A stretch of DNA of 64,000 nt from Candidatus Omnitrophota bacterium (GTDB lineage: Bacteria > Omnitrophota > Gorgyraeia > Zapsychrales > Zapsychraceae), in contig JADFYJ010000007.1 in NCBI GenBank assembly GCA_015233115.1, positions 40,885 to 104,884 on the forward strand. Reading direction: 5' to 3'. Below, piece after piece: positions 7,317 through 50,199 of the stretch. Each line of letters opens with the position of its first letter. The first letter of the stretch is position 1. The notes beneath the pieces are model-generated. The model worked only from the letters and a program-made list of their open reading frames with translations, did no database searches and was not told where the DNA came from. The translations under genes were made by a program, and so were the position numbers.

Positions 7317-8259
7317 TAAATTTTTAATAATGACCATTTTGATATGCTTTATTGCTGGAGGTTTTTGGTTCGTAAAAACGCGTAATAAAGCGAATGCCAA
7401 TACATCTAGCCAGGAAATTGCGCCAACCATTGGCAAGATTCAAACTTTTATTTCTACCACTGGAGATATCCTGCCGAAAAACCGTCTGGAAGTCAAGCCG
7501 CCGGTCAATGGCAGAATTGAAAGCGTAACAGTCAAAGAAGGCGACCATGTTAAAACCGGACAAATCGTAGCCTGGATGAGTTCAACCGACCGCGCCGCTT
7601 TACTCGATGCCGCTAGGGGAAAAAATGATCAATCATTAGAATATTGGCAAAATATATATAAACCGATTGCTTTAGTCGCGCCCATTGATGGCGACATAAT
7701 TGTCGCGACCATCCAACCTGGGCAAACCGTCACTGTATCCGATGCTGTTGTGGTCATATCTGATCAGCTGATCGCCCGCGCTCAAGTGGATGAAACAGAT
7801 ATAGGGAAAATCGTTTTAGGGCAAAAAGCAACTGTCACCTTGGACGCTTATCCGGACACCAAACTTAAAGCTGTGGTTGAACATTTATATTATGAATCAA
7901 CAACCGTCAACAATGTGACCATTTATAACGTTGATTTAACACTCGCGAATATTCCCGCGTTTTGCCGGTCAGGCATGAACGCGACGATTGATTTTAGAGA
8001 TAAATTTAAAAAAGATATTATGCTTTTGCCCGTAGATGTTGTTAAAGTTCAAAAAACCGGTGCTTACGTTATGGTTAAGACCGGACCAGGAAAGTCTGAA
8101 AAACGCACAGTCACAGTCGGGATAACGGACAATACCAATATAGAAATCGTCTCCGGCCTGACCACAAATGATATTGTGGTGGCCCAAAATAAAAAATTCG
8201 TTATGCCAAAATCAACCGGCGCAAATCCATTTATGCCGGCGAGACGGCCAAATAAATAA
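7306..8259 (+). CDS. Efflux transporter periplasmic adaptor subunit (HlyD/MacA-like)
   Basis: N-terminal TM anchor with biotinyl-lipoyl-like and beta-barrel segments. It lies immediately upstream of the macB-like gene. Confidence 0.65.
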   Translation: MRINKFLIMTILICFIAGGFWFVKTRNKANANTSSQEIAPTIGKIQTFISTTGDILPKNRLEVKPPVNGRIESVTVKEGDHVKTGQIVAWMSSTDRAALLDAARGKNDQSLEYWQNIYKPIALVAPIDGDIIVATIQPGQTVTVSDAVVVISDQLIARAQVDETDIGKIVLGQKATVTLDAYPDTKLKAVVEHLYYESTTVNNVTIYNVDLTLANIPAFCRSGMNATIDFRDKFKKDIMLLPVDVVKVQKTGAYVMVKTGPGKSEKRTVTVGITDNTNIEIVSGLTTNDIVVAQNKKFVMPKSTGANPFMPARRPNK

Positions 8260-39180: not shown

Positions 39181-39906
39181 ATGTCAAAAATATTAGAACC
39201 GGTTACAATTCTCATTCCAAGTCGCTATAACAATCGTTTGATTCTTGAATTGAACATTAAAACCATACGAAAATATACAACCGATTATCCTTATAAAATT
39301 ATTATTGGTGATGCTGGCATTGATAAAGAAACCATGGATTTTTTAACTCAACAAAACGATATTGAAATTGTCGTTTGCCCTGACCAAAAACGGCCTAAAG
39401 ACCATTTAGCCCGTATCTGTAATACCAAATATTTTATTTTTTTCCATGATGATATTCATATCTTACGCCCTGGATGGTTATCTCGGCGCGTCGAAATAAT
39501 GGAAACAAATCCACAAATCGGAGTGTCCGGAGTTATGGGCAATAATTTAATCCCTGGCTGGAAATGGAAACAGTTTATTCCGTTTTTGCCCGTATTATAC
39601 AAACGCTTTTTCCCGCTTATGCTTATGGTCAGAAATGAAACACAAAAAGAATTAGATCTAACTTGGTCAAAAATAAAGGGATTTGATACCGGAGCCATTG
39701 CTTATTATCAATTCTGCCGTCAAAAAAAATGGAAATTTAAGCCATATCCGTTTAAACATGATATCAAACATTGGGGGGCGATGACCTGGGTTGTTCAGCA
39801 TAAAACAGACCATCAACCGTCGAAATTGGATCTCAATAATTTACTGCTGATTCGGACGGAAAAAGAACAGCTCATAAAAAAGATATTGGAAAGCGGCCAA
39901 TTTTAA
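39181..39906 (+). CDS. Hypothetical protein, possible GT-A fold glycosyltransferase
   Basis: The ILIPSRYN...IIIGDAG N-terminus resembles GT2 nucleotide-binding motifs; weak. Confidence 0.35.
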   Translation: MSKILEPVTILIPSRYNNRLILELNIKTIRKYTTDYPYKIIIGDAGIDKETMDFLTQQNDIEIVVCPDQKRPKDHLARICNTKYFIFFHDDIHILRPGWLSRRVEIMETNPQIGVSGVMGNNLIPGWKWKQFIPFLPVLYKRFFPLMLMVRNETQKELDLTWSKIKGFDTGAIAYYQFCRQKKWKFKPYPFKHDIKHWGAMTWVVQHKTDHQPSKLDLNNLLLIRTEKEQLIKKILESGQF

Positions 39907-39961
39907 AAAATCCCCCTTTACAGGCACAAAAAAATCTGGTATAAATGGCTTCCATTTTAAT

Positions 39962-39993
39962 GCCGGCGTAGCCCGTTCGACATCGCTCAGGAC
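39962..39993 (+). repeat. Conserved element duplicating the first 11 nt of the downstream tRNA (upstream of tRNA-Thr)
   Basis: gccggcgtagc (identical to tRNA-Thr nt 1-11) followed by ccgttcgacatcgctcaggac. The paralogous unit at 50168-50199 carries the tRNA-Pro 5' end instead. Confidence 0.7.
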
Positions 39994-40017
39994 TTGCCGG
40001 AAAATATAAAATTTTGT

Positions 40018-40090
40018 GCCGGCGTAGCTCAGTTGGTAGAGCAATTGACTTGTAATCAATAGGTCGGGGGTTCGAAGCCTCTCGCCGGCT
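40018..40090 (+). tRNA. tRNA-Thr (anticodon TGT)
   Basis: Cloverleaf: acceptor gccggcg/cgccggc, anticodon stem attga/tcaat, loop cttgtaa, T-loop ttcgaag; no encoded CCA. Confidence 0.85.
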
Positions 40091-40113
40091 TTTATCGCTC
40101 TTTTTAAATTTTT

Positions 40114-40196
40114 GGGTAGGTACTCAAGTGGTCAAAGAGGACAGACTGTAAATCTGTTGCGCTTGCGCTTCCAAGGTTCGAATCCTTGCCTGCCCA
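40114..40196 (+). tRNA. tRNA-Tyr (anticodon GTA), long variable arm
   Basis: Acceptor gggtagg/cctgccc, anticodon stem acaga/tctgt, loop ctgtaaa, variable arm gcgcttgcgc, T-loop ttcgaat. Confidence 0.85.
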
Positions 40197-40330
40197 TTTT
40201 TAAAAATTAATCTAGTAAGGCAGTGAAGGATGAGAAGAGAGCTCTGCTTATAACTACGACGAATAGGAGTAGTTATAGAGCGAGTGGCCGACCGAAGCAA
40301 CGCGGAGGCGCCAGAATCCTTGCCTGCCCA
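40197..40330 (+). ncRNA. tRNA-Tyr-linked 3' element: conserved hairpin (actac-GACGAATAGGAG-gtagt) + gcgagtggccgaccgaag + ggcgcc + duplicate of the last 17 nt of tRNA-Tyr + T-run
   Basis: Shares its core with 40559-40669. The stem shows compensatory changes and the loop is conserved. The 3' end repeats gaatccttgcctgccca. Confidence 0.55.
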
Positions 40331-40342
40331 TTTATAAATTTT

Positions 40343-40478
40343 GTAAGTGGTAAACGTGGCAAAGGCAGTAAAGGTGATTGAATGGCGATTCATGAATCGC
40401 CCACTAAAAAAATATCGTTTTTTCAATTATCTGTTTTTATTACCTTTACCTCGTTTACCACCTTTATCACCTTTACAA
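40343..40478 (+). repeat. Inverted oligo-repeat pair (gtaagtggtaaacgtggcaaaggcagtaaaggtgat / tacctttacctcgtttaccacctttatcacctttacaa) with a central perfect 18-bp palindrome ggcgattcatgaatcgcc (40384-40401)
   Basis: Read directly from the sequence; lies upstream of tRNA-Gly. Confidence 0.7.
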
Positions 40479-40487
40479 CTTATTCGT

Positions 40488-40558
40488 GCGGGCGTAGTTC
40501 AGTGGTAGAATGCAAGCCTTCCAAGCTTGTTACGTGGGTTCGATTCCCATCGCCCGCT
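40488..40558 (+). tRNA. tRNA-Gly (anticodon TCC)
   Basis: Acceptor gcgggcg/cgcccgc, anticodon stem caagc/gcttg, loop cttccaa, T-loop ttcgatt. Confidence 0.85.
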
Positions 40559-40669
40559 TTTTTTCCCGGAAAGGGAATCGAAGGGAGCGGAGCAAGATGC
40601 GACGAATAGGAGCATCTGGCTTGCGAAGCGAGTGGCCGACCCGAAGGGCGCCGATTCCCATCGCCCGCT
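40559..40669 (+). ncRNA. tRNA-Gly-linked 3' element: hairpin (gatgc-GACGAATAGGAG-gcatc) + gcgagtggccgacccgaag + ggcgcc + duplicate of the last 17 nt of tRNA-Gly + T-run
   Basis: Same architecture as the tRNA-Tyr element. The 3' end repeats gattcccatcgcccgct, followed by tttttt. Confidence 0.55.
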
Positions 40670-40701
40670 TTTTTATTTCATCATCCACCTACGGCTTTCA
40701 T

Positions 40702-41301
40702 ATGAAAAATCTCAGACCCCTTATCTTGACTTTAATCCTTGTTTTATCAAGTCCCATCGTATACGCTGCACCTGTTAATTATTTGATCACTCCTAACAAA
40801 ACTGAATTGATATTTTTAGGTACCTCTACACTGCATGCATTTCATGGCGACTGTAAATCGTTTAAAGGCGAACTCCAATTTACTGAAAAACCACAATCAG
40901 CTCCTGACATTTCCGGCAGAGTCGTTGTTGATGTGAACATGATGACCACGGGTAATAAAACGATGGATCTTAAAATGTTTCAAATGCTTCAAAACGACCA
41001 ATTTCCCATTATTGTATATGAAATCCAAAAATTTATTCCAACAACAAAAACATTAACTGAAGAATCCATACCGGGAAAACTGATCGGACAATTAACGATC
41101 CGTAAAATAACTTTGCCCATTGAATGTGAAGTTGTTGTTAGAAAAACAGTCCGCGGTGAATACGATCTGGAAGGGAAGTCAAAATTAAGTTTAATTGAAT
41201 TCCAAATGAAACCGCCAACCGTATTAAAAATTCTTAACGTGCATGATCCTGTTGGAATTATTTTTACAGCAACCCTGGAACCCAATCTTCAAAAACCGTG
41301 A
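40702..41301 (+). CDS. YceI-family periplasmic protein
   Basis: Signal peptide plus ...TELIFLGTSTLHAFHGDCKSFKGEL..., characteristic of YceI-like domains. The track ORF's N-terminal extension overlaps tRNA-Gly and is rejected. Confidence 0.6.
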   Translation: MKNLRPLILTLILVLSSPIVYAAPVNYLITPNKTELIFLGTSTLHAFHGDCKSFKGELQFTEKPQSAPDISGRVVVDVNMMTTGNKTMDLKMFQMLQNDQFPIIVYEIQKFIPTTKTLTEESIPGKLIGQLTIRKITLPIECEVVVRKTVRGEYDLEGKSKLSLIEFQMKPPTVLKILNVHDPVGIIFTATLEPNLQKP

Positions 41302-50167: not shown

Positions 50168-50199
50168 CGGAGCGTAGCCCATTCGACTGCGCTCAGGAC
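50168..50199 (+). repeat. Conserved element duplicating the first 11 nt of tRNA-Pro (upstream of tRNA-Pro)
   Basis: cggagcgtagc (identical to tRNA-Pro nt 1-11) followed by ccattcgactgcgctcaggac; paralogous to 39962-39993. Confidence 0.7.

Follow-up and report, generated by a model that had tools for sequence, protein, structure and literature searches.

A structured RNA family of the tRNA-linked-repeat kind downstream of tRNA genes in Candidatus Omnitrophota

Two repeat units behind tRNA-Tyr and tRNA-Gly

The 64,000-nt stretch of Candidatus Omnitrophota DNA that was analysed here (contig JADFYJ010000007.1), referred to in full length as the window, carries a cluster of genes for tRNA-Thr, tRNA-Tyr and tRNA-Gly, the last two of which are each followed, from 1 nt downstream of the tRNA and on the same strand, by a repeat unit ending in a copy of the 3′ end of that tRNA. 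That these units represent a new structured RNA family of the kind described in Escherichia coli as tRNA-linked repeats (TLRs) is a well-supported conclusion. Six parts follow one another in each unit: a spacer, an inverted copy of a tRNA segment (B′), a junction, a hairpin (P2), a further stem (P3) and a direct copy of the tRNA end (B), which starts at the fourth base of the T-loop, R57. In the window these parts, together with the tRNA genes, are placed as follows.

40018-40090, forward strand: tRNA-Thr (tRNA calls).
40113-40197, forward strand: tRNA-Tyr(GTA) (ARAGORN; Rfam tRNA model, 59.5 bits at 40114-40196).
40180-40196, forward strand: source of the Tyr direct copy, from R57 to the discriminator of tRNA-Tyr, GAATCCTTGCCTGCCCA.
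40198-40218, forward strand: AT-rich, unconserved spacer between tRNA-Tyr and the Tyr unit (sequence).
40219-40231, forward strand: inverted copy B′ of the Tyr unit, the 5′ strand of P1 (sequence and minimum-free-energy (MFE) fold).
40232-40241, forward strand: junction J1/2 of the Tyr unit, GAGAAGAGAG, the 'GAGAA' version of the family junction (alignments).
40242-40280, forward strand: hairpin P2 of the Tyr unit, with arms CTCTGCTTATAACTA and TAGTTATAGAG (repeats and MFE fold).
40257-40269, forward strand: invariant P2 loop block of the Tyr unit, CGACGAATAGGAG (exact repeat).
40281-40313, forward strand: J2/3 and P3 of the Tyr unit, with the invariant CGAGTGGCCGACC, a short variable part, GGCGCC (40307-40312) and one extra A.
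40314-40330, forward strand: direct copy B of the Tyr unit, the exact 17 nt from R57 to the discriminator of tRNA-Tyr (exact repeat).
40488-40558, forward strand: tRNA-Gly(TCC) (ARAGORN; Rfam, 72.2 bits).
40542-40558, forward strand: source of the Gly direct copy, GATTCCCATCGCCCGCT.
40559-40572, forward strand: spacer between tRNA-Gly and the Gly unit, TTTTTTCCCGGAAA (sequence).
40573-40580, forward strand: inverted copy B′ of the Gly unit, GGGAATCG (sequence and covariance-model alignment).
40581-40628, forward strand: junction AAGGGAG and hairpin P2 of the Gly unit (sequence, repeats and alignment).
40629-40652, forward strand: CGAGTGGCCGACCCGAAGGGCGCC, comprising J2/3, a minimal P3 (CCC-GAA-GGG) and the scaffold end GGCGCC of the Gly unit.
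40653-40669, forward strand: direct copy B of the Gly unit, the exact 17 nt from R57 to the 3′ end of tRNA-Gly (exact repeat).

An initial sequence-only reading of the locus had proposed one shared architecture directly 3′ of both tRNAs, and this is borne out by two exact blocks that occur in both units and at no other site of the 64-kb window: CGACGAATAGGAG (13 nt, at 40257-40269 and 40600-40612) and AGCGAGTGGCCGACC (15 nt, at 40279-40293 and 40627-40641). The dimensions it gave, roughly 110 nt for the unit and some 95 bp between the repeats, fit the Gly unit (~111 nt, with a spacing of ~94 nt) and not the Tyr unit (~133 nt and ~117 nt). Equally, the loop is identical in both copies as had been claimed, whereas the 12-nt size assigned to it is incompatible with the proposed stems, which leave 11 nt, and it is re-read here as the 13-nt block. 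The stems that surround this common loop differ between the two units and nonetheless keep their complementarity (TATAACTA/TAGTTATA in the Tyr unit, AGATG/CATCT in the Gly unit), again as proposed. In the Gly unit this inner stem is accompanied by an outer stem that is mismatched in part. Within the loop block, CGAC and GGAG can form a C-G pair and tandem G·A pairs around a GAAUA pentaloop.

Towards the 3′ end, the terminal 17-nt copy of the upstream tRNA is exact in both units, and the GGCGCC that had been noted before it is found in both as well, with the extra A intervening in the Tyr unit. A T-run had also been described after the copy. It is clear only in the Gly unit, where TTTTTT follows both the direct copy and tRNA-Gly itself. 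What had been overlooked is a third tRNA-derived segment, an inverted copy of the T-loop/T-stem 3′ half in the 5′ part of each unit, which pairs with the direct copy and closes the unit. In the Tyr unit, GGCAG (40219-40223) complements CTGCC of the acceptor 3′ strand and, after a 2-nt mismatch, AAGGAT (40226-40231) complements ATCCTT; in the MFE fold this B′ pairs with 40315-40328 (z = -4.31), the first part of the direct copy being the 3′ strand of P1 and the remainder a tRNA-identical tail. The B′ of the Gly unit, GGGAATCG, complements CGATTCCC at 40652-40659 and, equally, positions 40541-40548 of tRNA-Gly itself.

Family distribution and RNA structure

Related units were sought with a pattern scan of one genome per species, which gave 9 loci, and with a metagenome scan, which gave 22 more (cited below as L followed by a number). 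A covariance model was then built from 22 units, including both window units as seed, and it returned 48 matches in the window and the 31 loci, those in the window being only the two already known (E ~1e-27 and 1e-21, both seed members); related units outside the seed scored E = 1e-22 to 1e-11, which lies far outside what chance would give. In all, the public scans provided some 45 further units, mostly from metagenome-assembled genomes (MAGs) of Omnitrophota type, and the named records are mostly Candidatus Omnitrophota. The pattern matches all lie just 3′ of a tRNA or a tRNA 3′ fragment on the same strand, or at a locus edge, with the exception of one chance match in a coding region. Leaving aside tandem second copies, locus edges and orphan or displaced copies, the gap from the tRNA to the model match ranges from -14 to +78 nt. 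The family is found at 17 isoacceptors: Val-CAC, Val-TAC, Gly-GCC, Gly-CCC, Gly-TCC, Thr-TGT, Thr-CGT, Arg-CCG, Arg-TCG, Tyr, Leu-TAG, Leu-TAA, Lys-CTT, Trp, Asp, Pro-GGG and Glu. In this regard, the covariance-model search that had been suggested for the two units recovered others, with stems that still covary, at many different tRNAs. The pattern that was to refute the initial reading, a unit confined to these two sites without further covariation, is not what is seen.

The units, of ~105-190 nt, occupy the trailers of tRNA operons, and the spacers that separate them from the tRNA vary among relatives. B′ corresponds, in reverse complement, to TTC and roughly the initial 10 nt of the direct copy; in some units 5 nt against the acceptor strand are added after a bulge. 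It is followed by a family junction of either GAAG(N)GAG or GAGAAG. P2 bears the invariant CGAC-GAAUA-GGAG loop, while P3, which starts from the invariant block GAGUGGCCGACC and opens with CGAGUGGCCGACC, can hold a variable hairpin of 0-70 nt before its closing GGCGCC. On its left side the direct copy always begins right after the TTC of the T-loop, and its right edge usually coincides with the tRNA 3′ end, lying between 0 and 28 nt past it in the units observed. CCA is included in the copy only where the tRNA genes encode it, and in several genomes without encoded CCA the copy runs 4-28 nt into the flank; the tendency of the copy to run a few bases beyond the tRNA, stronger without encoded CCA, would fit a need for 3′-processing context, in what is a small sample. 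The acceptor 3′ strand, with the CCA where encoded, is left as a tail identical to that of the tRNA. Mismatches in the direct copy affect 3 of 184 positions in the unpaired tail and 6 of 207 in the paired part, a difference that is not significant.

The covariance model supports a fold that the unit can adopt, a three-way junction closed by P1, the helix between the inverted and the direct copy. When 45 distinct units are aligned with the model, standard pairs fill 89.7% of the cells, against 73% in shuffled alignments and 35-52% when the partners are slid; the alignment was fitted to the structure and these figures lean towards it, with slid controls and raw sequences in agreement. Changes on both sides are found in 21 of the 27 pairs, and in 500 shuffles the observed value was not attained once for any of the five measures. 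The inner part of P2 is paired in 96% of cases with compensatory changes at all five of its pairs, the base of P3 in 96.5%, with CC/GG to UU/AA changes in relatives, and P1 in 87%. Moreover, G·U combinations outnumber A·C ones by 61 to 15 overall and by 15 to 0 in inner P2 and P3, which indicates that the structure has been selected as RNA and on the tRNA-sense strand. The earlier proposal that compensated stems around an invariant loop are the mark of a functional RNA structure, and not of debris, is upheld by these double-sided changes and by the G·U excess. The full-length unit of L005 folds at -69.8 kcal/mol (z = -6.5).

Additional support for P1 is given by copies in which the tRNA-derived segments have drifted. 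The inverted copy of L004 agrees with its direct copy, drifted to GATTCCC, instead of with the tRNA (GACTCCC), and C-to-T changes that have occurred in the direct copies of L003 and L018 create G·U pairs. To judge from sequence, the ends of P1 (...UUCGAA or ...UGAGAA) would give Watson-Crick or tandem sheared G·A pairs opposite G57-A58. A comparison by descent was also available, since the window is syntenic with two Omnitrophota MAG loci that share the Thr-Tyr-Gly cluster followed by a glycosyltransferase of 72-78% identity. In the Tyr units of the window, of L005 and of L003, which are orthologous, P2 is kept by compensation (AACTA/TAGTT, AACCT/AGGTT, AATTG/CAATT), which argues for purifying selection during vertical descent.

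Relationship with known trailer RNAs

TLRs were first described in 1978 (Egan and Landy 1978; Rudd 1999, both as cited in PMC8144298), and E. coli contains 22 of them at ten loci, with one to five per locus (PMC8144298). Their 3′ 18-19 nt equal the 3′ end of the upstream tRNA and are thought to direct the same 3′ processing as that of the stable RNA, although no function is known for any of them except for three 5S-linked small RNAs, RrA, RrB and RrF (PMC8144298). The units described here share the location of TLRs in tRNA or rRNA operons, directly 3′ of a stable RNA gene and on the same strand, both in the window and in relatives. The terminal identity, 18-19 nt in E. coli, extends over 17 of 17 nt in both window units and over 17-20 nt in relatives. 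Copy number is likewise one to several, being single in the window and tandem in L019, L027 and L028/L031. On these defining features the units are filed under the TLR class. The suggestion of the sequence-only reading that they could be a tRNA-linked small RNA with a tRNA-like 3′ end proves the best fit of the options it listed, and it corresponds to the E. coli tRNA-linked repeats (RtT), a class that it did not name.

The likeness reaches into the internal layout. In the TLRs at E. coli tyrT, the repeat start is first present in inverted form (GGGGAAGGAT), followed by GAGAAG as the junction, by a core and by AATCCTTCCCCCACCACCA, in the same arrangement as our units, and the repeat starts inside the T-loop in both cases, at A58 in E. 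coli tyrT and at R57 in the Omnitrophota-type units. In RtT RNA (Rfam RF00391), the outer helix is formed by inverted and direct tRNA segments with the acceptor and CCA tail unpaired, just as P1 and the tail of the units, and internal hairpins are present as well, though the helices and the invariant blocks differ. A GGAU-GAGAA junction after the inverted copy is common to RtT, or the E. coli tyrT TLRs, and the Tyr unit of the window. At the tyrT locus of E. coli (NC_000913.3 1286900-1288400, L033), the RtT model reaches 112-137 bits, and the annotated RttR of the tyrT-tyrV operon starts 8 nt after tyrV and ends exactly with the repeat's CCA. Transcription with the operon and processing to a discrete RNA have been shown for RttR, as for RrA, RrB and RrF.

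On the other hand, there are differences. RtT is specific to tRNA-Tyr, whereas the units occur at 17 isoacceptors; the hosts are Omnitrophota-type MAGs in one case and Enterobacteria in the other; and a single conserved core serves all 17 isoacceptors in the Omnitrophota-type family, whereas the E. coli tyrT core finds only its own locus (blastn, median of 3 places per genome). The RtT model gave no match at E ≤ 10 (gathering score 45 bits) on positions 39800-40900 of the window or on L005 7100-7800, for which reason the units are not filed under the RtT family. Conversely, the family covariance model found no match on the E. coli TLRs. The sole sequence shared with an E. coli TLR is a 13-nt GACCCGAAGGGCG hairpin, for which local alignment gives z ~5 with some units and ~0 with others, and this stretch is not enough to claim homology.

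Other known identities were also considered. In the same two regions, Rfam at E ≤ 10 returned only tRNAs and noise, with no match to any of its ribozymes. With regard to the hammerhead, mapping of the junction shows just the GA pairs resembling G8-A9/G12-A13, while C3, U4, G5, A6, A14 and A15.1-U16.1 are absent. A terminator mimicking the tRNA 3′ end, another of the initial suggestions, gains no support: no terminator-like site lies within 39700-40900, and most relatives have no T-run after the direct copy. A small open reading frame (ORF) with the AGGAG loop as its Shine-Dalgarno sequence lacks a start codon at the appropriate distance, and a coding reading in general is at odds with the block GAGTGGCCGACC, which is devoid of third-position variation, and with length changes in P3 that are not multiples of three.

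Outside the TLRs of the tyrT type, the E. coli RNAs RrA, RrB, RrF and 3′ETS-leuZ are small RNAs derived from the trailers of stable-RNA operons, like the RNA proposed for the units. In RrB, the repeated 3′-end sequence has been proposed to direct the same RNase E cleavage as in 5S rRNA (PMC8144298). These RNAs act through binding of Hfq or CsrA or as sponges of small RNAs, whereas no such partner or target can be deduced for the units; no csrA or hfq gene was present in the sequence searched, a result that is uninformative.

TLRs have hitherto been treated as an enterobacterial oddity, and the same three-part layout is now found in a distant uncultured phylum. Its recurrence as one conserved, covarying RNA family at no fewer than 17 tRNAs makes an origin of such repeats as accidental debris unlikely. 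Nothing is overturned by this; rather, a curiosity of E. coli becomes a phylogenetically broad and structurally defined problem, and the family, with its defined structure, invariant nucleotides and natural variants (units without direct copy, with nested inserts or in a D-loop), turns it into a testable question. If the core binds a tRNA-processing factor, gates the folding of the tRNA, or is catalytic or mobile, an overlooked general layer of the biology of tRNA operons would come into view.

Possible function, spread and neighbouring elements

The reading that we favour, with a probability of about 0.5, is that the units are TLR-type structured trailer RNAs with a tRNA-mimicking stem and 3′ end, which would yield discrete stable small RNAs with a partner-binding core and would have spread by duplication. 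According to this proposal, the unit would be co-transcribed with the tRNA as part of the primary transcript, and release of the tRNA would set its 5′ end. At its 3′ end, 17-20 nt, often together with a few bases beyond, are identical to the tRNA, so that the 3′-trimming of the tRNA would also set the 3′ end of the unit. By analogy with E. coli RttR, the product would be one discrete and stable small RNA per tRNA transcript. Its invariant P2 loop and GAGUGGCCGACC block might represent a binding or active site for a partner. Within a genome, units would have spread by duplication and recombination between tRNA-identical repeats, with modules being exchanged between copies.

This proposal rests largely on the precedent of E. 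coli, and several points weigh against it. The acceptor 3′ strand is unpaired in most units, which are not canonical substrates of RNase P or RNase Z, and the processing idea accounts for the direct copy and not for the need of an inverted one, a gap that the mobile-element and switch readings given below address. Some units keep the inverted copy without a direct copy (L007/L008, L016 and L015/L024). A trans-acting RNA would not require copies at many tRNAs, and neither a partner protein nor a target was identified for the units. Finally, the patchy presence at syntenic sites, the tandem arrays, the orphan or decaying copies and the foreign tRNA end found in L022 look like selfish spread. Mobility and RNA function are not mutually exclusive, however.

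Several of these features lead to the most serious alternative, which we regard as doubtful: a non-autonomous mobile element, of RNA or DNA, that inserts at tRNA loops, mainly at C56/R57 of the T-loop and occasionally in the D-loop. The tRNA would be kept intact by duplication of the sequence from the insertion point to the end of the gene, and the inverted copy would be taken from the target or be itself a targeting arm. A left edge of the repeat fixed after TTC, with a right edge that varies from the tRNA end to 28 nt beyond it, speaks for such an element, as do the tandem arrays with the spacer inside the period (L019, L027, L028/L031), the orphan copies of L027, the decaying Tyr copy of L003, and the filled and empty sites in syntenic Arg-Lys-Leu-Gly and Thr-Tyr-Gly clusters. 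Moreover, a single core stands at 17 isoacceptors with arms matching each tRNA, and in L013 it is found inside the D-loop of a partial tRNA-Glu copy. A different 30-nt insert occupies the identical T-loop breakpoint in L005, and a second family of elements lies between 15-19-nt copies of tRNA 5′ ends and the real tRNA. A weak lead in the same direction comes from a preprint, which reports that stress enriches the tyrT/rttR region of E. coli in 'mobilome' DNA resistant to exonuclease (bioRxiv 10.1101/2024.07.17.603846).

Against an element of this type, no recombinase, transposase, integrase, reverse transcriptase, nuclease or phage gene was found in or beside the units at ~30 loci. No genuine copy was found in viral contigs either: the strict pattern gave 0 matches there, and the relaxed one gave 35 loci, none with a tRNA and with a best model score of 21.9 bits in apparent coding sequence, so that these are chance matches. 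The length of the repeat tracks the tRNA end instead of a fixed stagger, and we know of no bacterial mechanism that gives this layout. Near-identical whole units are absent from different tRNAs of one genome. P2 may be up to 98% identical between units whose P3 interior differs strongly, a mosaic that suggests old copies homogenised in modules and not recent jumps. As to the initial suggestion of a miniature tRNA-targeting mobile element, which is likewise doubtful, the tandem arrays, orphans and filled or empty polymorphism argue for duplicative spread, while neither an enzyme nor a mechanism was found for it.

It is also conceivable, if unlikely, that the core is itself active, either as a new ribozyme or as a mobile element made of RNA, acting at the tRNA elbow (C56/R57 of the T-loop, sometimes the D-loop) and copying itself beside tRNA genes. 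In that event the tRNA terminus would be duplicated and an inverted arm matching the target would arise in the process, of which the TLRs of E. coli would be relics.

An improbable option is a cis-acting switch on tRNA maturation, in which the inverted copy would pair either with the 3′ strand of the upstream T-arm, misfolding the precursor, or with the downstream mimic, which would leave the tRNA free, according to a factor sensed by the core. It would account for the tRNA-specificity of both arms and for the presence of one copy per tRNA, and every full unit does contain three mutually exclusive segments. Where the direct copy has drifted (L003, L018, the Tyr unit of L023, L006), the inverted copy is usually still a perfect complement of the tRNA, and it matches the tRNA perfectly over 14 nt in L007 and 10 nt in L016, which have no direct copy. 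The exceptions are L004, with its inverted copy that follows the direct copy, and L015/L024 and L020, where it matches neither neighbour well. In addition, the tRNA is transcribed and folded before the inverted copy exists, so that invasion of the folded T-arm is kinetically unfavourable, and no ligand or factor is known.

More improbable still would be that the core is a new small self-cleaving or self-ligating ribozyme acting at the junction between scaffold and R57, with P1 as its substrate helix. Its appeal lies in the 13-nt and 14-nt blocks that are invariant across divergent genomes, in a three-way junction with GA[stem]GA flanking P2, and in a very precise junction, after ...GCGCC and before R57 (UUC/R57 in the tRNA); the lack of Rfam ribozyme matches and of hammerhead core nucleotides speaks against it.

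Integrases that target tRNA genes are classically recognised by repeats spanning the tRNA from its T-loop to its 3′ end. The notion that the units are relics of integrase insertions, that is, attachment-site (att) duplications of decayed integrative elements, nevertheless deserves very little credence. The att direct repeat does span the same tRNA segment, and a 3.2-kb segment of L020 is flanked by direct repeats (tRNA-Leu 3′ part, unit and ~90 nt). In contrast with att duplications, only ~100-170 nt separate the repeats of the units (94-117 nt of non-coding structured sequence in the window), no integrase, cargo or mobile-element gene lies beside them, and what lies between them is conserved as a structure of RNA type, in which changes are compensatory and tolerate G·U. 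The same core stands at 17 different tRNAs, and independent decay would not leave the same 100 nt repeatedly.

Type V-K CRISPR transposons home to tRNA genes with short guides. It is hardly credible that the unit serves a TnpB/Cas12-like or transposon-homing effector as its guide RNA, made of a scaffold on the 5′ side and 17-20 nt of guide on the 3′ side, with T-loop GGTTC as the target- or protospacer-adjacent motif (TAM/PAM). The scaffold does end in GGCGCC followed by sequence identical to the tRNA gene immediately 3′ of GGTTC, whereas this 'guide' is tied up in P1 through pairing with the inverted copy, none of the ~30 loci is adjoined by genes of an effector or a transposon, transposon ends are missing, and many guides per genome would target essential genes. 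A TnpB/Cas12k-like guide RNA and an IS110 bridge RNA are both rejected, since the two tRNA-derived arms correspond to a single stretch of 10 nt and are paired together, and no effector gene is present.

The family clearly spreads and turns over, as illustrated by the unit of L022 that carries the end of another tRNA. The genes beside the units encode glycosyltransferases, YceI, ThiF, CofD, PTS EIIA, RlmN, RadC and FtsH, and the protein families that recur after clustering of ORFs of at least 80 aa from the 31 loci are syntenic housekeeping ones (CofD, PTS EIIA, NAD(P)HX dehydratase, RlmN, RadC and FtsH).

Departures from the standard unit were observed at several loci. Some variants keep the frame (B′, GRGAG, GGGTGGCCGAC, GCGCC and B) around a different P2 interior without the 13-nt loop, one P2 loop bears a nested hairpin with the same loop, and a minimal stand-alone hairpin has the loop CGACCGAATAGGAAG; these variants are located in L031 (second unit after tRNA-Lys), L018:611-766, L021:8177-8365 and L002 (Arg-Lys spacer). 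In L013 (880-1190 and 1260-1760), the family core sits in the D-loop of a duplicated 5′ part of tRNA-Glu(CTC), the copy after GGCGCC corresponding to tRNA positions ~22-43 and not to the 3′ end, and two more divergent units, one with a nested insertion, follow the tRNA. The 3.2-kb segment of L020 (1641-5215), with direct repeats at both ends, contains three ORFs of 140, 290 and 423 aa without Pfam match, and in both of its units the T-loop to which the inverted copy corresponds is that of the tRNA fragment on the right, instead of that of the intact tRNA on the left; the segment may represent a small island that entered through recombination across the unit. The insert after tRNA-Gly(TCC) in L005 (7786-7872) has 30 nt and two small hairpins inside the copied T-arm (GACGG TT / insert / C GATTCCGTTCTCCCGCTCCA).

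Further elements are found near the units. Between the Tyr unit and tRNA-Gly, at 40334-40483 of the window, there is a long imperfect inverted repeat with 45-nt arms of 73-85% complementarity and three ACCTTTAC motifs, a candidate miniature inverted-repeat transposable element (MITE), regulator site or hairpin RNA. An element of ~250-300 nt is repeated in one MAG after the units of tRNA-Arg and tRNA-Tyr (L004:5520-5790 and L005:7400-7700), and its terminal inverted repeats (TTAACGTGAGTTCGACATA..GGCATGCAAGGATATG / CATATCCTTGCATGCC..TATGTCGAAC..CGTTAA) and variable centre give it a MITE-like look.

A second kind of element precedes tRNA-Thr and tRNA-Pro, at 39962-39993 and 50168-50199 of the window. 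In it, the initial 11 nt of the tRNA are repeated in direct orientation (GCCGGCGTAGC, CGGAGCGTAGC) and followed by a conserved CC(R)TTCGACNNCGCTCAGGAC, 56 nt before the tRNA start, a pattern that is absent from shuffles. TCGACA in the Thr copy scores as the -35 hexamer of a promoter-like site, and a related upstream element in L012 has a 38-nt 5′ copy and GCTCGGCAGGAC. Finally, a repeat family called 'Y' (TTCTGCTayGCCC..GGGCTTCGCAGAA..AAGAGCGAAGCAGAA, with a closing stem of its own) occurs at L021:7384-7500, 7620-7733 and 7982-8113 and at L022 ~1398-1440. It is placed between a 15-19-nt copy of a tRNA 5′ end, broken in the D-loop, and the real tRNA-Lys or tRNA-Gly, as a mirror image of the 3′ units, and it also appears directly after the direct copy of 3′ units.

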